Below are positions 3,009-45,274 of a DNA stretch of 58,474 nucleotides, in pieces (position 1 is the stretch's first letter; every line of letters starts with the position of its first letter). The position numbers were made by a program, and so were the translations under genes. This DNA comes from Chiloscyllium plagiosum. Taxonomy: Eukaryota. The stretch is taken from assembly GCF_004010195.1 (NCBI RefSeq), contig NC_057726.1, forward strand, positions 61,968,519 through 62,026,992, given 5' to 3'. The notes beneath the pieces are model-generated. The model saw only the letters and a program-made list of their open reading frames with translations. It searched no databases and was not told where the DNA came from.

Positions 3009-3063
3009 ATGACAGCCAATATCATTTTTCTCTGCGTGATTCTCCAAGGGATTATTCATATAG
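3009..3063 (+). CDS. Gene A exon 1, signal peptide (MTANIIFLCVILQGIIHI)
   Basis: ATG, hydrophobic 18-mer and phase-1 donor G|gtatc; joins the V exon in frame. Confidence 0.8.
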
Positions 3064-3541
3064 GTATCACTAATTTATAAAATGCTTCTGAAACATTTTT
3101 ACACGGTTTAGAGCAAGCTACTTCCTCTACCCGACTATCCCTTAACGAGGATGTGATGTAGTAGTGATAGCTAATATTCAAATAACGCGAAAGTTTTGAA
3201 ATTCAATTTGACTTCACATAGTGTGTTTGGAATATGAATCTAGAGTCAGTAAAGATGACAATGAAAAGATAGTCGATTATCATTAAGAACTAAGTAGCTG
3301 ACTGATTTCCATTCTTAACGTGAGGGAAGGAAATCTGCTATCCTTTCTTGCTCCTGACTACATGCGATCTGGAGCAATGTGACTGACTCTTAGCTTCCTT
3401 CTGAAATAGTTCAGGAAGCCTCTCAGAACCGGAGTAGTTAGGAAAGGGCAATGATGCCTTTGCTAGCTATACCCACATGCCATGATTTTTTAGAATGGTT
3501 GTTTATTTTACAATCAATATGTGTTTGCTTATTTCTGCCAG

Positions 3542-3862
3542 CTGCGGATCGCACTTCATTCACTGTATCTCAGGCACCCAAAGAAGCGAATGTATCCAGA
3601 GGAGACAATATGACTTTCTACTGCATATTTCCCCTCTCTAAAGACCAAACCTGGGTACGGGTATTATGGTGGAAACATGGTGAGAATGAATACCTACGTG
3701 TAAGCACGGACAAGAGAAAAAGATTTGGGATGGCAAGCAGAGCAAGCGGTTTCCTTCGGCTGCTGGGTGTGACAATCCAAGACGCTGGAATCTATCACTG
3801 CACCGTGATCCGTCAGGGAGAAGTTAGAGGCAATGGCACTGGATCGCGTTTAACTGTGTATG
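3542..3862 (+). CDS. Gene A exon 2, Ig V-set domain with J-like G strand
   Basis: Acceptor ccag|; VSQ, FYC, WWK, DAGIYHC and GNGTGSRLTV motifs; phase-1 donor G|gtaaat; 321 nt. Confidence 0.93.
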
Positions 3863-3987
3863 GTAAATGAATATGTTGAGCAGGGACCTTTTGAAACAGC
3901 TTTATTGTATCCTCTTTGTCAGTATAAAGGTAACTATTAATACAATTCGCGATCATGCTCCCTGTTTAAATCTACTAATTAGACAGA

Positions 3988-4117
3988 TAAAAATCACACA
4001 CCACCAGGTTATAGTTCAACTGGTTTGTTTGGCAGCACTACCTTTCCGAGCGCAGCTCCGAAAGCTAGTGATTCCAAGCAAACCTGTCAGACTATAATCT
4101 GGTATTGTGTGATTTTT
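3988..4117. repeat. Palindromic (fold-back) element made from a Penelope-like terminus
   Basis: aaaaatcacacaccaccaggttatag...ctataatctggtattgtgtgattttt are reverse complements; the same sequence starts the element at ~17745. Confidence 0.7.
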
Positions 4118-5296
4118 AACTTTGTGCACCCCGGTCCAACACCGGCACCTCGAAATCATGGCTAATTAGACATGTAGCGTCACACGCAGATTGCTACAAA
4201 ATGAACTAGTATTAATCAGTTAGAGTGGAACTGCAAAGGCAACATATGCATCAACTTAATTATCGCGAAAACTCGGAACGGTGTTCAAGTTTCTAACAGA
4301 TTGAAAGCTTTTGTGTTATTGTGTTCCTCTCCCATCACCTTTCCCAGCTACACGTATACCGCCCTGTTCCTAACTCCTCTCAGTTGTGAAGAAAGGTCAC
4401 TAGATCCGAAACTTTAACTCTTTATTTTCTCCATAGATGCTACCAGATATGCTGACTTTGCTCGCAATTTTTGTATTGTTTCTGAGCCCCTGTGTAATAC
4501 GAAATTCTGAACCATACACCTTGCTTAGGTATTTTTTAGTGCACGTTTCCGCCTACCGTTGCCTTAGTTAATCAGCATGCCTGAAATTTAATCTCACATT
4601 TTGACAGAATTGCGGAATTCAACGTCACTGAGCTGCTAATTGTCGAATAAATGATTTACCCACGATCTGGAGCTTCAAACACACGGATTGCATCACTAGC
4701 GCCCAATAAATAAAATAAACAGAGGTTCAGTTTTCCTGAAATCTCTTGGTCTTCAGCTGAATGCATTGTATTCCAACAATTGTTATGCCCCAGCTATGAG
4801 TTATTCCAAAAGCTGGTAAAGACCCCATTTTATGATGAATATTGTTGACCACATACCTCTTAGTATGTATCAAACATGTAAAGATTCATTGTGTCAACCT
4901 ATTCCCAGAAATTTCGATTTTGGACTATGGAAGCCAAACACAACGTAATAAGACTTTTCGATTGCTCTGCCGAGTAATTTAAATTTTGAAGAACTCGAAA
5001 TGTCACTTTTGTTTTCTCTCTACAGATGCTGCCAGACCTCCTGTAATTCCGTTTTTATTTATGTTAATTCAAAGTCTTGGTGTTAATAATATAGGTAAAA
5101 TTGACTCAGTCGTCGATTTCTATCTGAAGCATGGAGAGGACGCACATAAAATATGTTTAACATTAAAAAGAAAAGAGGCTGCGCCTTCGAATGCCATCTT
5201 TGTAAAAAATAAACGGTCCAAACTTAGATAAGAACAATATTTAGTTTCTCCTAAAAGCACACAGTAACTTAATTTTATTCATTCTGTGCTTTGCAG

Positions 5297-5608
5297 CGGC
5301 CCCAACACCACTAGCTATTGTCTCCGGGCTATCAGAAGGGAATTCCTCTCCATCGCTGGCTCTAAACTGTGAAACAGCTGCGTTTTATCCGGAAAATCTC
5401 ACACTCACTTGGTATAAGAATGGTGTTGAATCTGCATTCGGAATAAAGACAAGTAAAATAAAGAACACGGAGGGACTATATGAAGTTTCCAGTACTTTAG
5501 TTGAGACGCAATCTGTCCTTAGCGGCACCAATTATACCTGTTCGGTAAAACACGTCTCCCTCCTGGCGCCAGCTGTTGTCACCTGGACCGTTTGGAAATC
5601 TAATCGAG
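5297..5608 (+). CDS. Gene A exon 3, Ig C1-set domain
   Basis: Acceptor tttgcag|; LALNCETAAFYPENLTLTWYKNG...GLYEVSSTL...YTCSVKHVSL are C1 hallmarks (FYP, YxCxVxH); donor G|gtagg. Not in the ORF track because it has no start codon. Confidence 0.93.
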
Positions 5609-6332: not shown

Positions 6333-6446
6333 ATATTGCCCATATGCCATTTTACTACTCGTGCCTCAGATACATGGTGGGTGGACTGGCGTTTCTATTA
6401 CTCCTGATTATCACCGGGTCGCACTGTGCAATAGAGTTTGAGAAAA
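6333..6446 (+). CDS. Gene A exon 4, transmembrane (DIAHMPFYYSCLRYMVGGLAFLLLLIITGSHCAIEFEK)
   Basis: Acceptor tcttgcag|, donor A|gtaagt, phase 1-1, hydrophobic stretch; clearly homologous to the gene B TM exon (GGLA). Confidence 0.88.
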
Positions 6447-6810
6447 GTAAGTTTAATGTGATATGTTGATTTTAATACAGATACCAGTTGGTGATAGAGT
6501 GAACGTCAACGAGTATTCCAGGGAACGATCATTATTTTTGAACCAACAGTCTCTTTTCCCGACGAGTCACTGTGCTTTTTTTTTCCCGGAAAGTAATAAA
6601 TTCTCCAGTTCAAAACACAAAATTATGTGAACAATGGATTTGATCAGCCAGATATCAGCAATTACAATGTTCACCTGCAGCAAGGACTGAATCAAATTTG
6701 ACTTTACATGCTCCGTTTGCAAACATCTATCCTGACACCGCAATTAGTTTTTGCGAGGCTTTGTGGGTGTTAGCCTTGAAATGGTTACAGAACATTGTTC
6801 GTCTCTACAG

Positions 6811-6855
6811 AGGATAGAGTTTCAGTGTTGCAGAAATCAGCATTGGAAAAAACAG
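6811..6855 (+). CDS. Gene A candidate exon 5, short cytoplasmic exon (KDRVSVLQKSALEKT)
   Basis: Acceptor gtctctacag|, weak donor ag|gttcaa; 45 nt versus 44 nt in B and C. Confidence 0.4.
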
Positions 6856-7842
6856 GTTCAATTTTTGCACATTCTATAGAAATGTCTTTTTAAAAATCGC
6901 ATTCAAACCTTTTTTTAAAAAAAATCATTATTTTTAAAAAACGTACGAATTGATGTGAAAGCTGTTCATAGCTATTTTATTGCTTCGACATAATTCGAAG
7001 TCTAAAGCGAGCTAAACGCCGTGAACAACCGATCTGTTCATTCATGTATTTCCCACAGATGAAAATAACCAATCTTTGCAGTTTTGGAAGTATTTTTGCA
7101 ATGACAAATACCTAACAGCAGGCGCTAAGGAATTAAGCTGGTTTTGCGAGAGTAAAAGGGTCGCTGTTACGGAGTGCCATTTTCCTTCCCATGCCCAGTG
7201 CGTTCCTGATATAACCAAATAAACAGAGCGGAAACAACCCGGAAAATGCCGTTGAAATCCAAATACATAGCAAAACATCATTGTTCTACTTGCATGTTAT
7301 AAATCGGTTGGAAACTTTAGCACATTTACACCTGCGCTGTACTGAGTCCATTGACATATTTAGATATTTGTTACACAATGAGCGAACTAATTACGTGCTT
7401 TCGCAGTCGCGATTATTGAACAGCTTTCATCATGGTTTCTGCGCGCTATGTCTCACCATTGTTCAGTGTTTCACTAATAAAACAGTGAAAGGCAATGAAC
7501 TCGGCATCTCAGGAGTATTTCCTTGAGGACTGTGTGGAAAGCATAGGTCTAAAGTGCTCACACTTTGCATTGACGCAATCTTAACGATTAAGACTTCTAG
7601 AGTCATTCTCGAACAGGACCTCCTGTGAACATGCAAGTTGTGCTGAGAAGTGAATCAACCATCCAAAGATCACCACAGGCACTCATATTGCTGTGAGAAA
7701 CGGTACTATAAGGTTGGTTGTCTGCAGTCGTGTGTTGTAGTTCAGGCTTTTTGCGCTTTTTTTTCAACCCTTTGCTTAATCCTTCGAGTACCGGCCTAAA
7801 AAAAAGCACCAATTAACAATCTCCCAAAACATCAATTTTCAG

Positions 7843-7907
7843 ACCAAACAAGAGAAGCATGGGACTGCAGAATGATCAAGCAGCCAAAGAAAACTGAAGA
7901 ATATTAA
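7843..7907 (+). CDS. Gene A candidate terminal exon; short tail with no ITIM in either reachable frame
   Basis: Acceptor attttcag|. Phase 0 reads TKQEKHGTAE* (gene C's terminal exon starts TFQE); phase 1 reads DQTREAWDCRMIKQPKKTEEY*. Confidence 0.35.
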
Positions 7908-8013
7908 AAAATACTGTCAGCCAAGACGAAGCGTAATGTATCAAATGATTGCATCATTGAATGCAGACTATAACCGTCTGCGGGTTTTGAGAAGACTTGT
8001 CGCTCAGGTTGAG

Positions 8014-8272
8014 GTTCTGGATGTAGGTTTGCTCGCTGAGCTGGAAGTTCCGTTTTCAGACGTTTCGTCACCATATTAAGTAACATCTTCAGTCAGCCTC
8101 CAAATGAAGCACTGGTGGTGTAGCCCGCTTACTCAAACTCAAACATATAAACAGAGAGCGGGCTATAGCACTCGTGTTTCATTTGGAGGCTCACTAAAGA
8201 TGCTACTTAGTATGGTGACAAAATGTCTGAAAATGAAACTTCCAGCACAGCAAGCAAACCTACACCCAGAAC
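8014..8272. repeat. Inverted repeat (arms ~8014-8129 and ~8157-8272) derived from a Penelope-like terminus
   Basis: gttctggatgtaggtttgct...tagcccgct pairs with agcgggcta...agcaaacctacacccagaac. Confidence 0.8.
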
Positions 8273-10939
8273 AATAATTGTCTGTTATTTCATAGATACT
8301 TCTGGAAATTTCTGTAATAAAACAACAATGTGCTTTTTTGAGAAATCAGTAGTTTTAATGCAAGGTATTCCACACTATTTAGTCATCATGATGTGCATAG
8401 TCAATAAAACAAAATCCCGTTAGATCATTTTCTTCTTCATCAAATATTTGTGCGTTTTTCAGGTACTACTATAAAGCCTGATCTTTGATTTGCATTCTGA
8501 CCTCTAGAACAGACAATTCTTTTGATTTGTTTGATCTGTGAACTGGTCGGATCCTTTCCTGAACACAAACGACTCGATTCAAAGTAGGACGTGTGTTTCC
8601 CGATAATGTGTACGATTGTTCATTTTATTTCCAAGGGACCCATTTAGACAATTATTAGATATGAACAGAAGAACGACTAGCAGCTGAAAAATTACAATTT
8701 TTTTTTTATTGAGATTATCCCTGATTTACAGTGGCTGGCTGATCACCTGAAGGATGGTCAATAATTATTTGAGTTGTTTTAGGATTATCTCACACCAATT
8801 CTACAACTGTGCCATGGTTGAAAGTTCAAGACGAATTTTAAGGATAACATTATAAAGAAGCTATCTCACAACTGTTCTGGCATGATGAATTTGTAATTTA
8901 ACATGCTTTTTAGGATCTATAAAGTTACAATAGTAATTAAGAACAGACGTTTCCAAGAGACTGTACTCCACTCCCAAAATGAACAATCTCTTGTCATAAA
9001 TTTTCATGATGAATGACATTAACCTTTTTCCAAGCAAATACCATTTTGCTGCTGAGGACATTCAAAATCCTATATTCTGTATAGTCTCTGTGGTAACCGA
9101 ATCTTGCTCGACTATCCACCTTCATTCTTTCTGGTTACATGAAAGTTGTCCCACGATCATTTCATCACGACTTGCGCATCACAATATAGGATCGATTTGA
9201 AAACGTTTGTCAATATTTTAACCATCACAGACAACGCAAGGTAAACTCAGCAGGGCGACCAGCATCTGTGGAGAGAGAAACGGAATTAAAGTTTTCAACT
9301 TCTTTATGATTGTTCTTCAGAGCTGTCAGTCTTTTTAAATCCTTGGGGACAGGAGGAAAAGGGAAACAAACAAGTTCCCACTCTTTGACATTTAGCTGGC
9401 TCCTTTGACCTGTTGCTGCTGTCTTCCATTACTATTTCTGTTGATCACTACTTCCTGTTATGACGCGCGATCCCACCAAATATGAAACCAAGGCCTGTCC
9501 TTTGCACTTTCGCTACATGATGGACTTTTGTTGACACCATTTTACCTCTTCGTTCCTCCTCACAACTGAAAGTCTTATTATTCAAGCTCCACGTTTTTTC
9601 TCAGATTTCAACGCGTGAAATTCAATATTTTCTACGTTTGTGCGCTGCATCAGACTTGAGAACTAGAAACATTGCCAGCAGCATGTCGCGTTCAGAACTA
9701 TCACTATTTGATTGACTCCCCAATATACGTTTACTGCGAATTGGATTGCGTCTCAACTAAAGTACTGGAAACGTTATATAGTCCCTCGGTGTTCTTTATT
9801 TTACTTATTCCGAATGCAGATTCAACACCATACCCCCACACAATGCGCCCTCCCCAGCAAATACCTTTGAAGATAACCGGACTTCACAGAAAACAAACGA
9901 ACAAAATGCAGAACCCGTGAGACATCTCTGGGCACGTCCTTCTTTTTTCAGTTGGGTTCCTCTAACTTAACTTTTCTTTTGTCTCCTCTTGCCCATCGGC
10001 CTACACTATTCGTACTTCGTTTTGCCTGTATGGTGTGGAATGCCAGCTGAAATACTTCTGGAAACTCAGGTAAAATGCACATGCTGCACTTAACTGTTCC
10101 CTCTGTTAATTCTTCAAACTCTTCTGTAAGACAAATCCGATTTGCCTTTTTTATACCTTCATGCTGACTATACTTGATTCCTCTCTACCAAAGATATATA
10201 GTTTAGTGCTGAAAGACAGAGGACAGGGTGTGACGTACTTAAATCCTGAACTATTTACCTCCTATGAAGTTGCAATCAAGGTTACGCTATATTTGTCATC
10301 TCATAGAGTCATGCAGTCATGAAGGTCCACAGCAGAGAAAAAAAAAACCTCACTGTTTTCAGCCGATATAATATATTGCCAAAAAGCTGATCTTAAGTGA
10401 ACACACTCCAGATCACTATGCATTCAAAAATTACAGAGCAGTTCAGAAAAACGTGAACATTTCGGCATTCTACCATTGCTCGATTCTGATAAGAGGACAG
10501 GTGTTTACCAAGGGGTAATTCAGATGCTCGAATTGGTTTGCTAAATGTTAACACAAGCAATAAAGCTGAAACGGTTAATTATTTAAGTATTTGGTTAGCC
10601 CTATTCATGGTAACGTCACTTCTGTTGCATGACGGCATTAACGAAACATCACGTTTCAGCGTAACTGCAACAAAAACATTTAGACTTAGCAGCCCTAGTA
10701 GGACCGAAAAAATGTTTAAAGGCCGCACTGGGCCTTCGAATTTCATGACAGACATCAGTCAGACAGACATATTAGAATGTAATGCAACTTCCATTTATTT
10801 TTAACACTTTAGTTATTTGTAAGCACACAACCAACACTATCTAATTGGTTAAGTGGAATCCAGATACGACCCACGCATGGTGAACTGGCCATGTTCACTC
10901 TGACAAGTTATACTATTCTCGCCGAACTCAGGGTCTTCT

Positions 10940-12730
10940 CTTAATGTAGTTTGGTTAGCTTGATGATCCAGGTTATGTTTGGAACATAGCAAACAATTGT
11001 CCAACTAATATTTCACATCCTTGCCCACATTGGGTCACCAACACATCCACTTAATTGGTTCAGTGGTTGTTCCCACCCCTTGGTGCCATGGCATCAACAT
11101 ATTTGTCGTTTCGCTCTCGGGTTGGTGCCAGGCATCGTCCATCCGCAAGGGCAAGTCAATCCTTGAGCTGTATCTTATTCTCTACTTTTCGTCAGATGCA
11201 GGGTATATTCCCTCTCTGGTCAGTTTTAAGTCAGTATCACTGCTTTGTATAAAGTCTCCAACCCCAGTCTGATTGACGGAAATGGTAGCCTGTTTGCCTA
11301 TTGGGCTTTGCTATGATTTTCTCTCTCGTGCACCCTTGTTTTGCCAATTCACCCTCAACGTATGCTCCCAGCAGGGGCTAATTTGTGGTTTGTTATTACC
11401 TTGGTACTCCTCGGTTTTTGTCCGTGGATGGTATGAAGAATATGTTTATGAGGGACAGATTGGGGAGGGTGGCTGTCTCCCGCTGTCACAAATCCATAAT
11501 ATAACAAGATCATAAGACATTGGAGGAAAAATTAGGCCATTCAGCACATCGAGTCTGCTCCACCATTCAATCATGGCTAAAAGATTTTTCAACTGCATTT
11601 TCCCGTTTTTTCCCGGTAACCTTCGATCTCCTTGGCAATCAAGAAGTTATCTTGTTCTGTTTTATATGCACTCATTGACCTGGCTTCCACAGCCTTCTGT
11701 GAAAATGAATTCCACAGATTCACAACTCTCTGGAGAATGAAGTTTCTTCTTATCTCCGTTCTAAAGAGTCTTCCCTTTACTCTTAGGCTGTGCCCTCGGG
11801 TCTTCATCCCTCTTGAGTTGAGAGTGTGTTGCCGGAAAATCTTCATCCCTCTTGCCAGTGGAAATATTTTCCCAGCTTCCATTCCTTCCAGGCCATTCAT
11901 TATTCTGTAATTTTCAATCAGATCCAGCCTCATCCTTCTGAACTCCATCGAGTATCGCCCCAGAGGCGTCAAAAGATGCCCATATGTTAAACTTTTCATT
12001 TCAGGGATAATTCTCGTGAACCTCCTGTGGACCCACTCCAGGGACAATACATCCTTCTTGAGTTATGGGGTCCAACATTGCTCACAATACTCTCAATGTG
12101 GTCTATCCAGCGCTTCAGATGTACATATCTGCTTTGATAATCTTTCACACTCAAGGTGAATGTCAACACTATATTTGCCTTCCTATGTACTGATTCAAAC
12201 TGCAGGTTTTCCTTAAGAGAAACCTGGACTAGGATTCCTAAGTCCCTTTGCACTTCAGACTTCTGATTTTCTTCCCCATTTAGAACATAGCCCACATCTA
12301 TATTCTTCCCCAGAAAGTGCATCACCTCACACTTTCCCACATTTTATTTCATCTGCCACTTCTTAGCCCACTCTGCTAACCTTTCTAAAACTTTCTGCAG
12401 CCTCCCTGCCACCCCAATAGTACCTGCCTCTTCAGTATCTTTGGAGAGAAAAAAAAAATCCTTTTTCCAATGACAGAAAGTGAGAGAAAATACTACATAT
12501 GTACATATTACCTAAATTGATGTGTACTGGTGGGAGACTTTGTTGGGATGTCCAATTCCATGCGTCACTGGTGCTGACTGGGCAGCCTTAGTGTACATTG
12601 ATAGTTCTCAAAGCAGTTCCACACCGAGTTTGCCTTTAAAGCTGTCTGTGTAGATACGACATTCTGTTTTCCTATTTCAATCCTCCAGCGAGGAGGATCC
12701 ATCAACAAAGAGTTTAACGAGTTTTGCTGT
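10940..12730 (-). mobile_element. Degraded retrovirus-type pol relic (RNase H + integrase zinc-binding domain), interrupted by a CR1
   Basis: Minus strand reads KLFVDGSS (~12692-12715), then VHINLGNMYICSIFSH, then after the CR1 YGFVTAG (~11480-11497), then W*PNVGKDVKY*LDNCLLCSKHN (~10970-11045). Confidence 0.6.
11510..12430 (-). mobile_element. CR1-type LINE 3' portion
   Basis: ORFs MGKCEVMHF...QRDLG and RRFTRIIP...TRGHSLRV...RVVNLWNS are typical CR1 ORF2 C-terminus. Confidence 0.9.
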
Positions 12731-13719
12731 TGCATCTATTTCATGATTTTTGTCTAGACCTTTGCCTACATTTATTCCCTCCCCGTCACCCATGGCCTAT
12801 TATTTGGGACAAATGGTCCTTTGCCATTATTTGATGCCACAATCTGAGATTCATGTGGGTCACCACTTGGACTATGTTTACTAGTGAGAAAAGTGGACAC
12901 TCTAGTTGTTTAATTTCAATTTTTCAACCTTGTAGTGAATTCACCTTCTTCCCATGTTCCTGCTCTGACATGTTTGCACAGTTTCATTATTTGCTATTAT
13001 GTGTCTTATAATTTCTTCTTTAACTTTGGAGTTCTTTTTTCTCTCCCTCTCACTCATATACTTCCTTGAAGCAACTGGCTATTGCCATAGCCTTACTGAT
13101 TTTCCGGGTGTGGCCCCCTGCTCTCTACCTCCCAAGATTTTTTTTTTCCCATAGGTTCTGAGCCTGTGGTGATCTCCCACAATATTTCATATAGTCTGAT
13201 CACTTACGACTCACATACTTTCGAAGCATGGTCTCCTACTTGTGGCAATTGTCCACCATTTTCTAAATATCTAATAGTCTAATCCTAATCAAAAGGACAT
13301 GGGAGAGGACAGGACTGAAGTTCAGTGACTCTGCTCTGCTATAGGGGGCTTGTGTCTGAAGGCAATTTTTCTTTGCTGAATTGCCATCTGATTCCCCGAG
13401 TCAATGCATCGGACATATATTCAACATGCCCTCAAGGATGACTTCGAGACTTAACTCCCATGTATTAACTAAAGCAATTCCTCAACTGCGGCCATTTATC
13501 CATCAGACCAGAAAAACTACTGGTGTATTGACCCATAAACTGGTCGATTACTTCTGTTTCCTTCACCCACTTAATGCATGGACATCACATGAGGTATTTA
13601 ATCTATAATTTCAGGATCAGGCTGGGTCATTGTGATGTATCAGGAATTGATGAAGTGAATCCCAGAGTGACTTCAGTCACATTATGTTAGGGCGCACCTA
13701 GGGATATCTGAGGGTGTAG

Positions 13720-13940
13720 AAGGAGGAAGAGGAGGAGGAGGAAAAGAAAAGGGGGAAGAAGAAAAAGGAGGAGGAGGAGGAGGTCATGTAGNNNGAAGAA
13801 AGAGGAGGAGATGAAGAGGAAGAAGAAGACAATGAAGAAAAAGATGAAAGGAAGAGGTAGAAGAAGGAGAAGAAGAAGGAGGAGTAGAAGGAAGGAAGAG
13901 GGGAAGTAGTAGTAGTAGTAGGAGGAGGAGAGAAGAGAAA
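13720..13940 (+). repeat. Polypurine (GAA/GAG)n low-complexity tract containing a 3-N gap (13792-13794)
   Basis: Seen directly. Confidence 0.9.
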
Positions 13941-14329
13941 ACTATCCCTTGCAGTATCAACACTGGACTATTAATCCAGAAACTGAGCTAATGTTATCAA
14001 ACAATGTCAGATGGTAGAATTTGACTTCAAACATATCACGAATTGAGCATTTACTGAAGGCCATGAATTCATTGCCAATTGTTTGAAACCCCATCTGGTC
14101 GATTAGTGTCATTAGGTGAAATCTGCCATCTTCACCTGATCTGGCTGGTATGTGACTCCAGATCCAGGCCAACATGTTTGACTTTCAATTGCCCTCTGAA
14201 ATGACCAATCATACCACTCAGTCATATCAATTTTAATGAATTCTCAAGAAAGAAATGAAACCATATGAGCAACCTAGCATCAACCTCAGCACAGGAAAAG
14301 ACAGCGGCAGTATAATTAAACCCTGTTGA

Positions 14330-16320
14330 GCTTGCAACAACTTTTTATCAAAACATCTGGGTCTAGTGCCAAAATTTCGAGTACTGTCTCACAAATTAAT
14401 CAAGCACCTGTCTAACATACTGTACTTATGGAATCATACCTGACAGACAATGTTTAAGATGCCATCATCACAATTTCTGGATATGTCCTTTTACAGAAGC
14501 AGAACCAACCAACAGAGGTAGTGACAGATTGATATACAGATGGGAGGGATTTGCCCTCTGAGTCCTTAGTATTGATGCTGGATCCTATGAAGTGCATGGC
14601 TTCGGGTCAGACATGGGCCAGGAAACACCCTCTTCATTAGCACATACCATCCTCCCTCGGTTCATGAATGAGACCTCCTCCATATTGAACAACACTCTAA
14701 TGAAGCACTGAGGAACACAATGGCACAAAAATTACACAAAGTCGGGAATTTCGATGTCCACCCCTAATTGTGGCTTGGCAGCTGCACTACACGTCCAGCT
14801 GTTGGGTCTTAAGTGGCATAGCTGCCAGACTGGGCCTGAGGCAAGTGGTAAGGAAACCAACAAAAGGAAAGAAAAAGCATACTTGATCCGATCCTTGCCC
14901 ATCCCCAACTGCGGATGCATCATCCCACAACGGTATCCATCTGATTGACTACTACATATTCCTTGTGGAGACGAAGTCCCACCTGCATATTGTGAATAGG
15001 CTCCATCATGTTGTGTGGCATTACCAATGTGCAAAATGGAATAGACATCATATAGATCTAGCAACTCAGGACTGACTATCCATGAGACGCTGTCGACCAT
15101 TACGCTAGCAAAATTTACATCCTCATGGCTTGGCATTTCTCCCATTCAATCAGTACCTTTAATCCAGGGGATCAACCCTAGATCAATGGAAAACAGAAGC
15201 GGAAATCCCAGGAACTGATCCAGACATTACCGAAAATGAGATGTTGTCATTATTAGAGTGGTGTTGAAAAAGCACAGCAGGTCAGGCAACAACCAAGGAG
15301 CAGGAAAATCGACGTTTCAAGCAGGAGCCGTTCATCAGGAAGGAGGCTGGGAGCCTCCTGCTCCTCGGATGCTGCCTGACCTGCAGTGCATTTCCAGCGC
15401 CACTCTAATCTTGACTCTGATCTTCAGCATCTCAGTCCTCACTTCCGCCTGCTGAAAATGAGGTGTCAACCTGGTGAAGCTATGAAGCAGGACTGCATGT
15501 GCGTCAAATAGCATAAGCAGCAAGTGATGGATAGTTAGGAGAAAGGGCTGGCAAAGGGCTTATGCCCGAAACGCCGATTCTCCTGCTCCTTGGATGCTGC
15601 CTGACCTGTTGTGCTTTTCCAGCACCACACTCTTGACCAGTGATAGACAGAACCAAGCTATCCCACAGCTAACAGATGAGATCTAAGCTCTGCAGTCCTG
15701 AACTGTGCAATTGTGAATATTTAAGCAAGAAACTTGTGGAGAAAGATCCACAAATACCCACGCCCTAAATGATGAAAGAGTCCCACACATTAGAGCATAC
15801 GATGAGGGTGAAGCATTTGCAGAATCTACAGCCAGAAGTGTCACGTGGTTGGACTTTTTGGCCTACTTCAGTGGTCCCCAGCAATGGAGATACAAGTATT
15901 GATCCAGGTAAATTGACCCCAGGTAATATCAAGAAACAGTTGGAGACAATGGCATTGCAAAGGTTACAGGTCTATAAGCATCCACGCTCAAATGATGTTC
16001 AATAGAAGCAGTGCTCACTATCTATAAGATATACTGCAGCAATTCAGCAAAGAATCTTTGACAGCACCTTCCAAACCCATAATTACTTCCATCTGGAAGG
16101 GCAAGGAAAGCAAATACATTGAAACACCATCACCTGCAAGTCCCCTTCCAAGCCACTCACCATTTGACTTGGAAATAAATTACAGTTTCGTCAATGTCGT
16201 TGTGTTAAAATCCTGGAATTCCCTGTCTAAGCTCATTCTGGATCAACCTACAGCATGTGAATTTCAGCAGTTTAAGAAGTCAGCTCACGACCATCTTCTG
16301 AAGTGCAATTAGGATAGGCA
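14330..16320 (+). mobile_element. Old, fragmented non-LTR LINE (endonuclease-like 5' part and 3' end), interrupted by short Penelope-terminus repeats at ~15255-15640
   Basis: atggaatcatacctgacagacaat (ESYLTDN, APE-like). The 3' end gacagcaccttccaaaccc...tcctggaattccct recurs in reverse at ~28050-28680, ~36000-36260 and ~36760-37350. Confidence 0.55.
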
Positions 16321-17334: not shown

Positions 17335-17740
17335 CCAGGGGTGCATACTCAGCCTCCTACTGTGCTCACTGTATACCCATGACTGCGTTGTCAAATATCA
17401 GACTAATGTCATTTACAAGTTCGCTGATGACATCTGCAGAGTCGGTCGAATCTTAGATGGCGAAGAAAGAGACTATGGAAGGGAAGTGGAAGACCTGGAA
17501 AAATGGTGCACTCAGAGCAACCTAGCTCTTAATGCCGGCAAAACCAAGGAGCTCATCATTGACGTTCGGTGGGGTGTTATTCATGTCTTCATACACATTA
17601 ACAGAACAGAAGTGGAACGAGTGGAGAGTGTCAAACTCCTGGGAGTGGTTATCAATAACAAACTTTCTAGGTGCACCCACGACAGCATTCTGTCTGAATG
17701 TATCACTACATGGTATGGCATCCGTACCATTCAAGATCGG
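17335..17740 (+). mobile_element. Non-LTR RT fragment (Rex1/Babar- or L2-like)
   Basis: KFADD followed by WCTQSNLALNAGKTKELIID...VERVESVKLLGV. Confidence 0.7.
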
Positions 17741-17741
17741 A

Positions 17742-20382: not shown

Positions 20383-20443
20383 ATGATGTCGAATGCCAAG
20401 TTTCTTTTAATTCTCCTGACGCTCCTGGACCTCACTACTGCAG
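20383..20443 (+). CDS. Gene B exon 1, signal peptide (MMSNAKFLLILLTLLDLTTA)
   Basis: Classical n/h/c signal peptide; phase-1 donor G|gtatct. Confidence 0.88.
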
Positions 20444-20617
20444 GTATCTGTTCCATTAAACACAAAATGGTTTTCCAGTACTGCATCAGTTGAATCAATT
20501 GTCGCTCTTCGGTTTGTTCTCTTATTTCTTTCATAATTACATGTTGAATTATGGTGTTAGGTGTCTGGTTTTGCCTAGTTTGCAATTAACTAAAATGCGC
20601 TCTTATGTTACTTCCAG

Positions 20618-20938
20618 ATGCACCAGATTCCTCTGTGAGCATCCGTCAATCTCCCCCAAAGGCAGTTATATCAAAGGGTTCAGACATCATTCTCTACTGC
20701 ATTTTGCCCCTTTCCCATGATAATTCAGAGTTCGAGGTACGTTGGTGGAAACGGGGTGAGAATAAATTTCTGCAACCAGGAGTAGATAAAAGGAAACATA
20801 TTGGTGTCATATCTAAAGGATCTGCTAACCTGGATCTGCGAAACGCAATGCTCCAGGACTCAGGAATCTACCACTGTACAGTAATCCGTCAGGGAGCATT
20901 TTATGGAAATGGAACAGGAACTAATCTAACTGTCTGCA
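20618..20938 (+). CDS. Gene B exon 2, Ig V-set domain with J-like G strand
   Basis: Acceptor cttccag|; IRQSP, LYC, WWK, DSGIYHC and GNGTGTNLTV; donor A|gtaagt; 321 nt, same length as in gene A. Confidence 0.93.
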
Positions 20939-21634
20939 GTAAGTGACGGGGTAATGGGAATATCCAAAACGCCTTGTTGTCATAGATTTATTGTGCGGCC
21001 TTTCACTCTATAAATCACGTTATATTGTTTACTTACAACGTTTACTTCAGATTTCTTATCTCGAGACCACCCCGCTTACATTAAAACATTGCACACAACT
21101 GGATAATTAAATGGCAAAGTTTAATGTTTCATTTACTTTGCTATATAAATCGCCATGATATTAACCCAGGTGAGAAATGGGTTCTAAATGCAGACTCTGG
21201 AAAACAGAATTTGAACAGACTTGGTTTCAGATACATGACCTTGTGAAGCCGAATGTTAACGGATAGGTCTAAACGCTAGCGTTCACTTCAAATTTCTTAA
21301 CTCAAGACCACCCTAAGCCCGCGGTGATCCAAGGAGACAAAACTTTTGGTTGTCTGTCCTGGCGACAGCTTCAGATTTTTCGATGACCCAATTGAGTCAT
21401 CTTCTCTTCTTCTTAGTATCTAATGTATTGATTCTCCATCTGTGCGGGCTCCATGATATCGACTATGATTCTCCTGTCTTTATAATTATTAGGCTGATTG
21501 CTTATTTCTCTCCTTAGGATCGCAGTAAAACAGTAATGTATTATCAATCAGGCATCAAGTGAGAATGCCATTCTTGTCCTTTTAATCTCAACATTTATCC
21601 AGCGACCTGATTTTTCCATTTTTTTTGTTTGCAG

Positions 21635-21940
21635 TTTCTCCAGCTCCAATAAAGATTTACACAAAGCCACGCAAGGACAATTCATCGAAGTCTCTGACTC
21701 TTGTGTGTCAGACGAGTGCGTTCCATCCGGGCGATTTTACTCTCGTTTGGTATAAAAATGGCACCGCAATCTCACCGGCGATAATTAAAAAACAGAACGC
21801 TGAAGGACTGTATCAAGCTTTCAGTTCTTTGGAAGAGGCGCAACCTGAGCGGACCGAAGTTGTCTACATCTGTTTGGTAATACACATCTCCCTTCGGACT
21901 CCCGCCATTGCTATCCACACTGTGACAAATACCTACTCAG
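21635..21940 (+). CDS. Gene B exon 3, Ig C1-set domain
   Basis: Acceptor tttgcag|; LTLVCQTSAFHP...WYKNG...GLYQAFSSL...YICLVIHISL; donor G|gtatga. Confidence 0.93.
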
Positions 21941-26880: not shown

Positions 26881-26991
26881 ATCTCAATGATAAATATCAG
26901 TTTATCTGGATGTCTGGATATGTGATGGGTGGACTGGCAATTCTGGTATTCATCATCGTTGTTGGGATCAAAATCTGTTCAAAAAATGACG
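26881..26991 (+). CDS. Gene B exon 4, uncharged transmembrane (DLNDKYQFIWMSGYVMGGLAILVFIIVVGIKICSKND)
   Basis: Acceptor tcttgcag|, donor G|gtaggt, phase 1-1; homologous to the gene A TM exon. Confidence 0.9.
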
Positions 26992-29065: not shown

Positions 29066-29109
29066 GTAAAAAAGAAAATGTAACAACTGTGAATTCTTAT
29101 GATGAGCAG
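29066..29109 (+). CDS. Gene B exon 5, cytoplasmic (GKKENVTTVNSYDEQ)
   Basis: Acceptor ttttgccag|, strong donor CAG|gtaagc; 44 nt, phase 1 to 0, exactly what is needed to join the TM exon to the ITIM exon. Confidence 0.82.
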
Positions 29110-29619
29110 GTAAGCTGATGTTATTTGTCCCAAGAAATGGATTCCAATTTATATATACCTTGTTAAAATGGAAATGTTTCATCACAGGCTTTCGCAACAA
29201 GTACTTGCTTATCGTTGATATGATGTTCAAAGTCATTTGAAATTTGAGTAAGATAGCTGAGTGATGAGGAAACGATTGGCAACTTTAACATTGTGAAGCT
29301 CTGCAATAAGGAGACCAACCCTGGCCAAGGGTTAATTTTGCAGCATTTGGTAAATGACTAAAATACTGAAACTGCCTCTCGTTTAAAAATATCTATGACA
29401 CTATTGTGGTGAAAATCTATAAATGAAATATCAGTTACAATAGGCACCGTATTACTGTCCTCATCATCAACAGACGTTTACACATACAGTATTAACCGTT
29501 GCTTCTGCATCAGTTGATAGCCCAGGCACCTTTATGTTGACTGTCTAAGCATCAGTCTCTAACTGTTAAAATCAATTAACTAACCAGCTGACAAACCGCC
29601 TCCTTCTTGTCTCATGCAG

Positions 29620-29742
29620 CCGGTTGCGACCCAAAACGTGATTTATACTGCAGTAGATTTGAAAAACACCAATAAAACTTCAAGAGCTCGAGATGACCAA
29701 GACGCGACAGCGTACGCTCAAGTGAAGCTCAGAAGTTCATAA
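29620..29742 (+). CDS. Gene B exon 6, cytoplasmic tail with ITIM (VIYTAV) and ITSM (TAYAQV)
   Basis: Acceptor ccttcttgtctcatgcag|; PVATQNVIYTAVDLKNTNKTSRARDDQDATAYAQVKLRSS*; spliced CDS is 966 nt = 321 aa + stop. Confidence 0.9.
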   Translation, partial: PVATQNVIYTAVDLKNTNKTSRARDDQDATAYAQVKLRSS

Positions 29743-39094: not shown

Positions 39095-39149
39095 ATGGCT
39101 GTGAAGGCTGTGTTTCAGAGTATACAGCTCATAAAGATTATTTTCATTG
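39095..39149 (+). CDS. Gene C exon 1, leader (MAVKAVFQSIQLIKIIFI)
   Basis: 55 nt as in gene A; phase-1 donor G|gtatgt; weaker hydrophobic core. Confidence 0.7.
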
Positions 39150-39242
39150 GTATGTTCCAGAATTCGCTCTTTGTCTTTATGTTTGTCTCATGTTATCTCT
39201 CTAAATCTTCCTCAGTGTTTTGCAAACACTTTTCTTTTACAG

Positions 39243-39557
39243 TTGCTGCTGATGTTCCTGTTGAAGTGTCCCAGATCCCCGAACGTATCTATGCCACAAC
39301 TGGCACAAACCTCACATTCTATTGCACGTTTTCTGTTTTTCAAGACAAACAGGCGATCATTTATTGGTGGAAACTTGGTGAAAATGAATTCATTCATTTT
39401 GGATCAGACAACAGGAAACGACTTTTCATCGAGAAAGGAAGAGCCTCATTACAACTCCTGAATATCAGTGTCCAAGACTCTGGAGTCTATTATTGCAGAC
39501 TGACATGCCCGGGAAAAAGAGCCGCAAATGGAAGTGGATCAACACTTGTCGTCCGTG
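39243..39557 (+). CDS. Gene C exon 2, Ig V-set domain with J-like G strand
   Basis: Acceptor ttttcttttacag|; VSQIP, FYC, WWK, ASLQL, DSGVYYC and ANGSGSTLVV; donor G|gtaaga. Confidence 0.93.
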
Positions 39558-39789
39558 GTAAGAGATGGTCAATGGAGTAGACTGAAAATTCTCTATCTTA
39601 TTACAATTAGAAAAATGTAACTGGCAACACGTTTTTCTCTTCCTTGGGCGTTCCATTAAATTAGAAAATAAATGTTTCAAAAGAAATATTTAATTATGAA
39701 TCAGATGATATCCCTCTACGTCGAGGTTCCACGATCTTGATTTTCTAACATTGTTTCGATTATTTCATGCATGAAAACTCGCACAGACC

Positions 39790-40090
39790 AACTAATCTGC
39801 ACATCTTTGCACTATTGGAGGAAACCAAAACACCCAGAGTAAACCCATACTGACACGGGCGAACGTGCAAACTCCACATAGTCAACTAACCGTGGCTAAT
39901 GCTTTGGTTTCTTCCCATAGCCTAAGATTTGCAGGATATGTGGATTGACAATGCTAAATTATCCAGTAAAGTCCAGGGATATGCAGGCTAGTAGGATAGG
40001 GTGGAGGACTAGGTCTGGGTAGTGTGCTCTTTGGATGGTCGGTGCACCCTTGATGGACCGAATGGCCTCTGTTTACACGGTAGACATTAT
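39790..40090. mobile_element. Two partial HE1-like SINE copies in opposite orientation
   Basis: gaggaaacc...tgcaaactccaca (reverse) followed by atgctaaatt...ggaccgaatggcct (forward); both match 45969-46308. Confidence 0.65.
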
Positions 40091-41575
40091 TCTAAGCGTT
40101 TCCATGTCATTCAAGTATGGATATTGAGTGGAAAATTACTTGAACATTGTTCAGTATAGGAAACATTTGACAGTATTAAACTTGTTTTTGCTGACTGTCT
40201 CAACAAGGACAGTCAAGCTAAAAGTCGTTTAAATGCATTTGAAATCTAATTTCAATCAAAACATGATGTCCAAATTTGCTGCATGTGATCAGCTTTGAAT
40301 GTTGTGTGCCAGTTTGTCTGCGGTAAAAAAAAGAAAGACTTCGATGTTGCAAATTCTTTTCCACATCATTACGTATTTTAAAGTGTTAGTTAACTATAGC
40401 TGACATAATGGCAAAATGCTTTAAAAGCAGAAATCTGAACCTACCAGATAATTAGTGATAATGCTTGGTGGATATATATTGACCAAAAAATTGGGACAAT
40501 TACAATTAACTTGTCTGATCAATACTAGAGGATATTTTACTTTCATTGAAGAGGTCAGAATGGGTTTTGGTGTATTCCCCTGGATGGACGGCCTGTTTCC
40601 CATTGCAGCGCTCTCTCCGTACAATTCTAAAGGATTGGCCTTGATTGTTCCTCCAAATCCATTGAGTAGAGCTTGGAGCTGACACCCGTCTTGGAATGAA
40701 GCGTGTTTCCACGTGCTATGAGAACATTGTGCGTTCCAGCTCGAAGAATCAAACATTCGGATGTTTGGTCGCATTTGTAGTTTTCAATCGATTTGGTCAG
40801 TTTTTGGTGGGCTAACGCAAGACGTTGAATCACCTCAAATCCCTTCAGAAGCAGAAACAAAACTTAATAACGAATGCAATTACTTGTTTCCTGAATTTTG
40901 TAAACTCTATTTGCCTCAGTTTTAATCTCCGATATATCTCCCACTCTGAAGTAACTCGTGAAATGTACGAACATCTCAGTCCCAGACTGAGACTATAGAG
41001 TTCTCAATCATGTTATGCCTCCCATGTTTATTTCAGCAGCAAGATGGATTGTGGCTTTGAGGCGACAATTCCTCTGCTCACTGTAAGTAGCCACACAGAT
41101 TGAATACATTCTGGAAGTTTCCTCTGGTCACATATTGATTGCGTATTAAAGTTTGCCAAAAGGAAAGCTATCTCATATTCACTACCGTGGCATCCTGAAA
41201 TTCTTTGAACAATCTTTAATTTGTTTTCTCTCTCATCAGGTGATGCAGGAAAGATAAATTTGGTGATCCAGGGAAATTTGAAATAAATTTAGAGATCCAA
41301 CCCCACTTGCAGGTTGCTATAATCCGAATATGCTATCTGGAAGGCCATTAGAAGCATGTTCAGTAGGAACTCCAAAGGGCCGTGGATCAATGCTTGAACC
41401 TGGTCATTTTCACACCGAAAGGAAAGAACAGATACGAGAACATTATTGCATAATACTTCCAAGAAAGCAGCGTGGGCAGGATAGACCAAAATAGCAGGTT
41501 TGCTGTAGCATTCTATAATTATATAGAAGATCATAATTGATAGACAAAGCATTCACTTCACCATTACCATTCATG

Positions 41576-41609
41576 CTATTTGCTGTTATTTGCTGTTATT
41601 TGCTGTTAT
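41576..41609 (+). repeat. Tandem 10-mer (tatttgctgt) x3
   Basis: Seen directly. Confidence 0.8.
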
Positions 41610-41696
41610 AGTCTATCCAGAATAATTGAAAAGGGACGCCATTCTAATTTGCAGACCAGACGAGATTATTAACTTCCTTGTTCGTTGTTTCACCAG

Positions 41697-42011
41697 CTTC
41701 TCCAACTCCAGTGAGGATTGTTTCCCGTCCCTCTGAAAGTACTGCGCACAGTTCTTTGTCTTTGGTATGTGAAATGGATTTGGTTTTCCTGGACGGTCTG
41801 ACTATCACTTGGTACAAAAATAATCGAAGCATTGAGAATGGGATAAATACGACCACGAAGCAACTCAGTGGAGCAGGGCTGTATAAAGTTTCAAGCTATT
41901 TGGAAGAAGCACGGCCTATCCAAGGAAGAACTGTTTTTGTCTGTCTGATGTCTCAAGCGACCCTACAGATTCCAGCCATGGCCATTTACTTGGTCCCTAT
42001 TTCTCGTCTAG
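41697..42011 (+). CDS. Gene C exon 3, divergent Ig C1-set domain
   Basis: Acceptor caccag|; LSLVCEMDLVFLDGLTITWYKN...GLYKVSSYL...FVCLMSQ; donor G|gtaaga; colinear with the A and B C1 exons. Confidence 0.9.
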
Positions 42012-42159
42012 GTAAGATTCTACGCTCAGCAGACGCAAAATCAAAAAGCCTCAGATATAATCTGACACAAAAGCTCAGAACGTACTTGCACAATCCAAAT
42101 TATAAGAAACCTGCAAGTGCAATATTTCTCTGCGTAAAATCTCACAACCTATGATCTGT

Positions 42160-43400
42160 AACGAGGAGGTCATGCCTGATCAACCTAATTTAATTTTGCA
42201 AAGAGGTGAAAATATATGCAGACAACGACAATGCTTTTGATACACTCTATTCCGATTTCAGCTACGTTTTGATGCAATCCCGCACGGGAAAGTGGAAGAA
42301 AGTATAGCAGATCATTGGATCCAAGGAAATTTGGCAAATTGGGTCCATAATTAGCTGACAAGCAAGGAGCAGATAGTTATGGCTGACAGGCGTTTTTCCA
42401 ATTGAAAACCTGAGTTCAATGGGGTCCCACACGGATCGGTGTGAGGCCCCTGCAGTTTCTGTTTATGTAAATGATTTAAACTTTAATGTATGAGGGTTGA
42501 TCAATAAGTTCACAGATAATACGAAAAAGACGGTGGAAGGTAAATATTAAGTAGGGTTACTTTAGATTACACAAGGCTATGGACGAACTGGTCAGATGAG
42601 ATGATCAGTGAGAAGTGGAACTCAATCCAGAAAAATGCATGCTGATGTAATTGGACAGGACAGGCAAGGCAGGGAATACATTGTAAAAGGTGGGACCCTA
42701 CGAAGCATTGAGGATCAGATGGTATGCTTGTTACGCACATACACTAGCCACTTAAGTTTTAGGGCAGCGAATTGATGAATTGATTAAGAAGGCATTTGGT
42801 GTATTTGCTGTTGATAGCCAAGGCGTAAATTTAAAAACAGGGAAGGTATTCTGGAACTATATAAAATTGTTCGTTCGCCACAGCTAGTGTATGATATGCA
42901 GTTCTGGATTCCACATTATAGGAGGGATGTGATTGTACAGGAGACGATGCAGAGAAGATATACCATGATATTGCTTGGACTGCAGAGTTTCAGTTATGAG
43001 ACAGATTGGACAGACTGGGATGTTTTCTTAGAGCAAGTGAAATTGAGAAGGGACTTGACTGAGATTTATAAAATTAGGAGGGGTACGGATAGGGTAAAAG
43101 GAGGAAGAAACTGTTCCAATTAATGGAGCGATCACTGAATGGGGGTAGGGAGAGTGGGTGGAGCAAATAGATTTAAGCTAAGAAGCAGAAGGTTTAGACC
43201 AGATGTGAGGGGAAAAAAGCGTTTTCACCAGAAGGTGGGGGAAATTTGGAATTCACTGACTGTAAGTGTGGTAGAGATAGAAACCCTCATAAAATTTAAG
43301 AAGTATGTGGATATATACTGTACTTGCAAAGGCATATGAGACTTTTGGTTAAGTGCTGGAAATTGTGATTTTAATAGTTAAGTAGTTATTCCTTACTGGC
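42160..43400 (+). mobile_element. Degenerate CR1 LINE (RT + 3' end) in gene C intron 3
   Basis: ggggtcccacacggatcggtg (GVPxGSV), QFWIPHYRRDV and LRRDLTEIYKI. Confidence 0.85.
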
Positions 43401-43809
43401 ATGAACACGTAAAGCCTTCTTTTATTTTATAGATCTCAATAATTGTATGGCAACATCACATTTCATTGTCTGCTGCTGAATGAGTCGGTGCTAGGAATTA
43501 CACTGCAGTAATAACCATGGAAACTAAGCATTACCTGAGTTTGCAAAATCTGTTCAGTATAACAAGTGCTTCACCCTAGTCCTAATTTCCAGAACAGTTA
43601 GGTTCGCAATTTTTGACAGACCATATCCTCTGAACTAGTTACATCAAGACATACCTAACATAATAAAACTCCACAAAGGCATGCTTTGATAGAATTCCAC
43701 ATGATGACAAAGGGGAGTACAACTTGAAGGAATTAACTCGTGAAACATTGAAAAAAAGCTTAATTGTCATAGATAGCACCATTTCTGAAAGTGAGTATTA
43801 ATGTTGCAG

Positions 43810-43926
43810 ACGATGACAACATATTTCGCACTTACGTACGGATCTTTGCATGCGCAGGATTTGTACTGATGTTTTTGGCACTGCTGGCTATCATTAGAAT
43901 GTGGCACATATTCACTAACCACAAAG
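43810..43926 (+). CDS. Gene C exon 4, transmembrane (DDDNIFRTYVRIFACAGFVLMFLALLAIIRMWHIFTNHK)
   Basis: Acceptor gttgcag|, donor G|gtaaga, phase 1-1, hydrophobic stretch. Confidence 0.88.
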
Positions 43927-44057
43927 GTAAGATATCATACTATCATTTAACGGAAACCATTCAAAAACTAACAGAAGTTGTGAAATACAATATTGCTTTA
44001 ATATTGGTATGAGTGTAAAGGTATATTTTCTTAGTTTTTACTTCTTTTACAACCAAG

Positions 44058-44335
44058 TGTTCAATTCACGCCTCAGGCGACTGACTGTGTGGAGTTTGCA
44101 CATTCTCCCCGTGTCTGCGTGGGTTTCCTCCGGCTGCTCCGGCTTCCTCCTACAATCCAAAAATGTGCAGGCTAGGTGAATTGGCCATGCTAAATTGCCC
44201 ATAGTGTTAGGTGAAGGGGTATGTGAAGGGAAGGTGAAGGGGAGTGGGTCTGGGTGGGTATGCGCTTCGGCGGGTCGGTGTGGACTTATTGGGCCGAAAG
44301 GCCTGTTTCCACACTGTAAGTTGTACAATCTAAAA
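44058..44335 (+). mobile_element. 5'-truncated HE1-like SINE
   Basis: Near-identical to the body of 45969-46308. Confidence 0.85.
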
Positions 44336-44565
44336 AGTCGGAAGTCTGCTTTCGGGGATCTGTGTGATCAAATACACTAAGAGAAACATTTATCCAACAT
44401 TTTTATCCACGTTATAGACAGAAATTGAGTCAGTAATTTTGCTCCCATTTGCTAACCAATGGAAGAGTAGATATGTCTTACTTTGCCCTGACTGTAAATT
44501 GACATTTACTATATAGTACTTGCGGAATCATTTCTTGCAATAACATGTGGAATTTTGTGTTTTAG

Positions 44566-44609
44566 CAAACAGACAGGGAAACGATGAAGCAAGCCATTGT
44601 GGCAACTCT
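44566..44609 (+). CDS. Gene C exon 5, cytoplasmic (ANRQGNDEASHCGNS)
   Basis: Acceptor ttttgtgttttag|, donor |gtaagt; 44 nt, phase 1 to 0, same size as gene B exon 5. Confidence 0.82.
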
Positions 44610-45136
44610 GTAAGTTTATACCTATCCTACATTTTAAGTACAAGCAATTATTTCCATATGGCTATTGGAAGGTGAAACTCCACACCTGAAAATCTGGACA
44701 TTTTATTCATATACAATGTGAAAGAAGGCAACAACGTTTTCAAAAAAGTAAATGAAGAGTTTAGAAAAGACGGGTGAATAGGGCTAAATAGATGCCTGAT
44801 ACTAAGAACATGGAAAGAACATCGAGGCAATGTTCCACGATTCTCGCACAATATCAACCACATGACTCGTGAAACAGTGATGAACATTAAATATCGTGCA
44901 TTCAGAACAATGTTCTAATGATGGCAAACTAAATTAGCAGTGATCATGAATTTAGGACAATCTATTTGAAAGCACACATTTTTGAGAAGGATGCTAATTA
45001 GATGAATTTAACTAAATGACATTAAGTTTGATGCAATAACAAAACTAAACAAACTTTATGATTTCTGTATTACTTTAATACGCTTTCTGTGATATATTCT
45101 ATTGCATAGTTGAGCTAATTTTATCAATTTTTTTAG

Positions 45137-45274
45137 ACTTTTCAAGAAACAATTGATAATTCGTTGACTTATGCCACTGTCCAGCCAGTTAGTTCTATGA
45201 AAAATGGAAATCCAAGGACGAAAGAAAAAGGCACAGAATATGCAGAAATTAGGAATGTACATCAAAAGAGATAA
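45137..45274 (+). CDS. Gene C exon 6, cytoplasmic tail with ITIM (LTYATV) and ITSM (TEYAEI)
   Basis: Acceptor ttttttag|; TFQETIDNSLTYATVQPVSSMKNGNPRTKEKGTEYAEIRNVHQKR*; spliced CDS is 984 nt = 327 aa + stop. Confidence 0.9.
   Translation, partial: TFQETIDNSLTYATVQPVSSMKNGNPRTKEKGTEYAEIRNVHQKR

Follow-up and report, generated by a model that had tools for sequence, protein, structure and literature searches.

In the definition given in PMC3533184, paired receptors are encoded by clustered genes with similar ectodomains, among which some members carry ITIMs and others, the activating ones, carry a membrane Arg or Lys without ITIM, and this is the arrangement found in the shark family considered here. 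The SIRP set comprises the inhibitory SIRPalpha, the activating SIRPbeta and the non-signalling SIRPgamma. According to PMC13107469, TCRalpha and CD89 contact the Asp pair in zeta/gamma dimers through an Arg near the upper end of their transmembrane (TM) helix, a shift of this Arg by one residue abolishing assembly in CD89, and coupling to zeta/gamma through an Arg in the upper TM half is assumed there for NKp30 and NKp46. We considered the window G000:C17:61968519-62026992 of the bamboo shark Chiloscyllium plagiosum, by which we mean the whole stretch of 58,474 nucleotides that was analysed. It contains three genes on the + strand, A, B and C, built on one plan of leader, V, C1, TM and cytoplasmic exons, and in all three the V exon is recognised as Pfam V-set and the next exon as Pfam C1-set. 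Their features, in window coordinates, are the following.

3009..3063, + strand: gene A exon 1, leader peptide (ATG, GT donor, phase 1, hydrophobic)
3542..3862, + strand: gene A exon 2, V domain of VJ type in one exon (Pfam V-set, E 4.8e-9)
5297..5608, + strand: gene A exon 3, C1-set domain (Pfam C1-set, E 2.2e-12; FYP, C-13-W spacing)
6333..6446, + strand: gene A exon 4, TM exon (AG..GT, 114 nt, phase 1-1, open frame, hydropathy)
6362..6364, + strand: gene A Cys codon of YYSC, two residues N-terminal of the Arg, unconserved
6368..6370, + strand: AGA codon of gene A for the Arg at the N-terminal edge of its TM helix
7059..7222, + strand: candidate last coding exon of gene A (good acceptor, in frame; predicted)
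20383..21940, + strand: gene B leader (20383-20443), V (20618-20938) and C1 (21635-21940) exons
26881..26991, + strand: gene B TM exon, with Gly codon GGA at 26916-26918 aligned with the AGA of A
29066..29742, + strand: gene B cytoplasmic exons, one of 44 nt (29066-29109) and the last (29620-29742)
39095..45274, + strand: gene C, same architecture as A and B
43810-43926, + strand: gene C TM exon, with Arg codon CGG at 43839-43841, 1-3 positions N-terminal of the Arg column of A
45137-45274, + strand: gene C last exon, with ITIM/ITSM-like motifs

The TM exon of gene A reads ...YYSCLRYMVGGLAFLLLLIITG... in frame with the C1 exon upstream. It is an exact AG..GT exon whose AGA codon is aligned with the GGA of B, as the first-pass annotation had claimed; the 'one-nucleotide' difference announced there holds for the two codons, which are one base apart, but not for the exons, where 61 of the 111 ungapped bases differ, with 9 differences in the 30 bases around the codon. 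At the Arg codon, no difference is listed in the DNA runs X1, X3 and X4 (one study). This Arg stands 17 residues before the first charged residue on the cytosolic side, and falls outside the best hydrophobic windows of 19 and 21 residues and inside the 23-residue window only. The V exon shows the motifs DxGxYxC and J-like GxGSxLxV, and no exact RSS heptamer or nonamer was found around it in 3400-4200. Five sites of this exon (window 3567-3827) differ in other DNA runs, three of them changing the residue, and these differences are possibly polymorphism, or possibly come from contigs of a second gene, A', which is described below.

Gene A most likely ends either in the predicted exon 7059-7222, which encodes a Cys-rich extension of 53 residues without ITIM, or by read-through of the TM exon, where a stop follows after 8 further codons, again without ITIM; an AATAAA overlaps the stop of the candidate exon and a second one lies at 7476-7481. 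On the exons of A, nothing usable came from the single-cell runs X5 and X6, of which about 2% and 6% were read, or from the contig runs X7 and X8, and the 3' end given here is a model. Between the TM exon of A and the start of B (6447-20382), nucleotide and protein profiles of the family tail exons found neither an intact tail exon (best nucleotide E 1.3) nor a decayed ITIM exon. The same profiles recover the B exon (E 3e-18 and 6e-16), the C exon and a decayed second exon behind B, which was seen as an additional family tail exon at window about 29890-30010 (+) with a nucleotide profile E of 1e-4. The Arg is thus found in the gene in which no family tail exon was detected and not in the ITIM/ITSM gene, as had been claimed, the last exon of B (29620-29742) carrying the ITIM/ITSM-like motifs VIYTAV and TAYAQV. 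Three Ns at 13792-13794, in a simple repeat 7.3 kb past the TM exon of A, could hide a gap, and blastn reports no nucleotide similarity between the TM and downstream region of A and any paralogue. An inverted, ~90% identical copy of part of the C1 exon of A lies at window 9707-9835 (-), 2.5 kb behind the last exon of A, and is a sign of local rearrangement. The leader, V and C1 exons of gene B match by eye the named C. plagiosum protein P0012, a database model that stops short of the TM exon. Gene C, which combines an Arg with an ITIM/ITSM-like tail, is possibly a dual-signal member, or its Arg possibly a boundary residue.

Among the described systems, SIRP resembles A in having a V + C1-set ectodomain without rearrangement (the C1-set criteria applied to A being those given in PMC2785349), clustered paired members and ITIM/ITSM-like tails. 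The best solved-structure sequence match of catshark P0002, a protein related to A, is SIRPalpha (E 4.5e-13), with antibody heavy chains very close behind, and NCBI gives many of the relatives the label 'SIRP-like'. By contrast, SIRP is V-C1-C1 where A has a single C1 exon ahead of its TM exon, and the basic residue of SIRP is described as DAP12-binding (PMC12975943). The Arg of A stands at the top of the TM, a position that fits zeta/gamma use better than DAP12 use. In activating SIRP members the basic residue is a central Lys, and the mammalian SIRP genes are flanked by NSFL1C and PDYN; in the shark, SEP and opioid-precursor markers lie on C20 and C4 and none on C17, and no V/C1 match was seen between the C20 markers in the 200 kb read of about 500 kb.

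NKp30 (NCR3) shares with A a single-exon VJ-type V and an Arg in the upper TM half, which in NKp30 serves zeta/gamma (PMC13107469, PMC6514059), and to this extent the likeness to NKp30 drawn by the first-pass annotation stands. It fails for the remainder of the gene: NKp30 is presented as a molecule of one Ig domain that is MHC-linked (PMC6514059, PMC12227049), whereas A has V plus C1, lies on C17 and counts dozens of paralogues with ITIMs. Matches to MHC class I are on C37 and unplaced contigs, with none on C17 among the 50 matches listed. The identification of gene A as NKp30 itself was rejected, on its extra C1 and its position on C17 and not on the MHC class I contig C37.

The NxxR receptors coupled to FcRgamma (CD89, NKp46, GPVI, OSCAR, LILRA and the TM1 of Xenopus XFL) resemble A in their Arg near the TM N-terminus and their short tail, and the family of A in being paired with ITIM members. 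Their activating TM is, in the accounts of PMC6557307 and PMC2413239, one old conserved module; in the shark family, by contrast, the nearest relatives of most Arg TMs are Gly sisters, so that the Arg TM would have been made repeatedly, and A has Ser at position -3 and therefore no NxxR, Asn at -3 occurring among 27 Arg rows only in C17:68917112 and its protein P0075. The activating KIR and Ly49 receptors are described with TMs alike save for the charged residue and with ITIM relics (PMC6557307, PMC3533184), as in this family, and differ from it by unrelated ectodomains, by having known ligands and, in human KIR, by the use of Lys and DAP12; no paper on a recurrent origin of activating KIR/Ly49 was found in a literature search with poor coverage of subscription journals. 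Finally, UrIg/UrIg2 and PRARP are like A in having a non-rearranging, intact VJ exon followed by C1 (PMC12227049, PMC10751288), PRARP being set beside A by description only. UrIg is, unlike A, reported as secreted, with three C1 domains and MHC linkage (PMC12227049).

The V exon of A has at least 50 matches in the genome and, among the matches listed, most are on C17, mainly in two clusters; gene A belongs to a cluster of about 45-50 V exons. We scanned about 1.5 Mb picked around these V matches and found there 35 TM exons, together with several V/C1 units without a TM exon. In databases, the relatives of gene A are shark, ray and chimaera proteins, and the rows retained also include at least one coelacanth protein. 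They are predicted models, the short tails of which may be truncations, and their labels (SIRP-like, tapasin-like, CD276 or CD276-like, class II beta) are inconsistent. A literature search, in which subscription journals were poorly covered, found no description of this shark family.

We aligned 112 TM segments, consisting of the 35 genomic exons and 77 database rows. The column that holds the Arg of A is mostly Gly or Arg (40 Gly and 15 Arg among the 77 database rows), and across the family its residue tracks the type of tail, beyond chance in tests on related rows. For the genome, we scored by hand the tails of 32 of the 35 TM exons, leaving out one of unknown tail class, the ambiguous A' and one duplicated TM: an intact tyrosine-motif exon is present in 2/12 Arg genes versus 17/20 non-Arg genes (Fisher p 2e-4, relatives being treated as independent), and the correlation between Arg and tail loss that the first-pass annotation had proposed to look for in the paralogues is thus present. 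For the databases, three rows from the same genome were dropped and the remaining 74 of 77 give a family tail exon in 0/14 Arg versus 36/60 other proteins (p 3e-5, again with relatives treated as independent), while a simple motif pattern applied to the full 77 rows detects a tail in 2/15 Arg versus 39/62 others. An independent-pairs test, which found three pairs on starred branches of the tree and cannot reach significance with this number, gave a mean of 2.2 in the same direction and 0.0 in the opposite one.

Ten Arg genes lack an intact tail, and seven of them have kept a decayed tail remnant, recognised by a frameshift, a stop or the loss of Tyr. The exceptions to the rule are C17:70626020 (Arg with an intact tail exon), C17:69272497 (Arg and an intact second tail exon), gene C and A', which combine an Arg at neighbouring positions with tyrosine exons, and three non-Arg genes without an intact tail. 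The activating/inhibitory signature attributed to this locus therefore holds in that A is of activating type and B of inhibitory type, but it is broken by gene C and by the 2/12 Arg genes that have a tail. Since at least two Arg genes appear damaged, C17:61541650 in the frame of its TM exon and C17:69148748 by a stop at the end of its C1 exon, some of the tail decay may be pseudogene decay.

In an unrooted tree of the 35 TM exons, from which the trait codon had been removed, the presence or absence of Arg requires 7 changes (7-8 in bootstraps), at least 3 of which are forced by starred branches. A single Arg clade was rejected on this tree (p-AU 1e-24), as was a one-time origin of the Arg TM with subsequent exon shuffling to all genes. 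The Arg codons AGA, CGT and CGA adjoin sisters with GGA, GGT and GGA, one sister comparison (AGA versus GGG) requiring two changes, and the introns flanking the Arg exons likewise link them to Gly sisters. Because the tree is unrooted, the choice between gain and loss rests on the tail remnants and on Gly being the commonest residue, from which we infer that the direction of change was Gly to Arg. A itself has no tail remnant, so that its own descent from an ITIM gene is extrapolated from the family. At G000:C17:61.5-61.8 Mb, four Arg genes have a common TM/3' region with one frameshift in the tail remnant, indicating one origin; as three different Gly genes match them in the ectodomain at 88-96%, ectodomain exchange is likely at this place.

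Pairing by V identity was studied on 24 hand-linked genes. Each of the nine Arg genes for which V and C1 are linked has a non-Arg relative at 71-96% V identity, and for 8/9 this relative is a Gly gene with an intact tail. Near-identical pairs of an Arg-short and a Gly-ITIM protein are known in the B lineage, from catshark (P0010/P0173, 206/210) and from Mustelus (P0011/P0175, 205/210). For A, the nearest V among the matches listed is that of A' (G000:C17:62088433(-)), 116 kb away; identity is 88% in V and 73% in C1, and similarity is limited to the exons and their edges. The A' locus (G000:C17:62083700-62092600 (-), L036-L037) has an identical duplicate of the C1 exon upstream of V, near an assembly gap. 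At the Arg column of A it has Ile, with Arg one position later, and the usual acceptor of its tyrosine exon is apparently lost; judged from its sequence, A' is no clean inhibitory partner for A. In a C1+TM tree, A joins A' (91) and not catshark P0002, the TM of which is identical to that of A at 19/26 residues (73%) and which has Arg and a tail of 5 residues. This TM match to an Arg-bearing, short-tailed protein suggests that the Arg of A is probably old, a switch that A would share with the catshark protein. The ligand-sharing counterpart of A would be A' and not B.

We think it likely that gene A activates immune cells and that its Arg pairs with the aspartates of an adaptor dimer of CD3zeta type. 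In the mechanism that we propose, activating members would arise repeatedly from inhibitory ones by a change from Gly to Arg, which would be a single base in most sister comparisons, the ITIM tail would decay once the Arg is in place, and the ectodomains of the on and off members would be kept alike through exon exchange or gene conversion. In A, the Arg near the top of the TM helix would dock the Asp pair of a CD3zeta-like dimer. A search of the genome for TMs of the zeta/gamma family gave one match over the cut-off, CD3zeta-like, with the Asp present and nearer to CD3zeta (43 bits) than to FcRgamma (35). FcRgamma has been reported missing from sharks, in a source based on older genomes (PMC4016189), and a profile search of the genome for DAP10 gave nothing over the cut-off; these three points together favour CD3zeta as adaptor. 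In 21/27 Arg rows, the Arg stands 16-17 residues from the cytosolic end.

The Arg of A might nevertheless lie at the membrane interface without any adaptor, A being expressed as a non-signalling decoy or adhesion molecule, like SIRPgamma, that competes with its inhibitory relatives for ligand. Its place at the edge of the hydrophobic stretch, the lack of NxxR, the Arg that gene C and A' have at nearby positions in addition to tyrosine exons, and the reported absence of FcRgamma from sharks in older genomes (PMC4016189) are all in line with this. However, a neutral residue is unlikely to recur at one column across lineages and in linkage with tail loss in two datasets, the spacing of 16-17 residues is kept in 21/27 Arg rows and a CD3zeta-like TM with Asp exists in the genome, so we regard an adaptor-free A as unlikely. 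Lower still do we place the view that A is a decaying copy, in which Arg and missing tail would reflect lost constraint and not changed function: several members of the cluster are indeed broken, the 3' exon of A is unlike every family tail and an inverted piece of its C1 exon is found downstream, but all exons of A keep an open frame and canonical splice sites, other DNA runs list neither stop nor frameshift in the parts of these exons that they cover, and the Arg-bearing TM is 73% identical to that of a catshark protein; this makes decay very improbable.

A dual-signal receptor with both Arg and ITIM, like KIR2DL4, would result if the tyrosine-motif exon of A were missing from the assembly or too diverged for recognition. 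The profiles that catch even decayed exons elsewhere find none behind A, the intact first tail exons of its relatives are about 1.2-5.2 kb from the TM and catshark P0002 stops 5 residues past it, and we give even less credence to this possibility, also in view of the three Ns in the simple repeat 7.3 kb past the TM exon, the two Arg paralogues that retain an intact tail exon and the 23 ITIM-like hexamers in 14 kb downstream, 4 of them with a plausible in-frame acceptor (raw counts, without shuffle control). Least credible of all, to the point of being negligible, is the matched pair proposed by the first-pass annotation, that is, A and B as a recent activating/inhibitory pair one point mutation apart. 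The two genes are adjacent, on the same strand, and have AGA and GGA in the aligned codon; against this, they are identical at only 52/106 residues in V (49%), 42/101 in C1 (42%) and 8/26 in the TM, the TM exons differ at 61/111 bases, and the starred clade that contains the V of B takes in ray and catshark proteins and leaves out A, which has its nearest V in A', while genuine near-identical Arg/Gly pairs are found elsewhere in the family. The Cys of YYSC, which had been put forward as a dimerising feature, does not appear as a conserved one either: Cys occupies this place in 1/112 TM segments, and Gly occupies it in the catshark counterpart. A Cys-mediated dimer might still form in A. One position past the Arg column, Cys is present in 62/112 rows, inhibitory ones included.

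With gene A read as an activating receptor of CD3zeta type, a wider proposal can be made for the family, which we advance tentatively and hold to be somewhat doubtful as a whole: cartilaginous fishes may possess a large paired-receptor family with VJ-C1 ectodomains and a reusable Gly codon, in which one base would give a CD3zeta-docking Arg, with ITIM decay and ectodomain swaps, a switch that would have been flipped about seven times in one genome. Intermediates with Arg plus intact ITIM are still present in the cluster, and the route would be laid out inside one cluster, starting with Gly and an intact ITIM, passing through Arg with the ITIM first intact and then decayed, and ending with Arg and no trace of it. 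If this is true, and if sharks are without FcRgamma, innate receptors would operate on the TCR zeta chain by an Arg contact of the TCRalpha type, and the family would be a living model for a non-rearranging VJ-C1 receptor gaining antigen-receptor signalling. The logic of on and off receptors is textbook knowledge, gene A alone is modest news and the family is more useful. It makes two questions testable, namely whether one TM substitution is enough for an ITAM adaptor and which adaptor is used if FcRgamma is absent, and it enlarges the small set of non-rearranging antigen-receptor relatives by VJ-C1 genes that are membrane-bound and would signal.

Besides the genes discussed above, a second Arg TM class ends in V-D/E-H and has short tails from chimaera to sharks (G000:C17:68917112 (-) and 69531569 (-); proteins P0018, P0026, P0029, P0049, P0056 and P0063). 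One of its genomic copies has NxxR and another Gln replacing Arg. This class looks old and is nearer than the remainder of the family to the picture of an old module. A distinct class, conserved in other sharks, is found at G000:C17:61889191-61903143 (+) and comprises the proteins P0065, P0030, P0061 and P0086; it has a TM that starts with Trp-Trp-Ile-Tyr, a Cys-rich juxtamembrane segment and a CxxC motif in the tail, with no family tyrosine exon. Within the window, mutually similar G-rich stretches lie at about 24000-26620, 42300-43100, 48080-48390 and 53590-54360, one of them broken by a run of 596 Ns, and they resemble LINE remnants.
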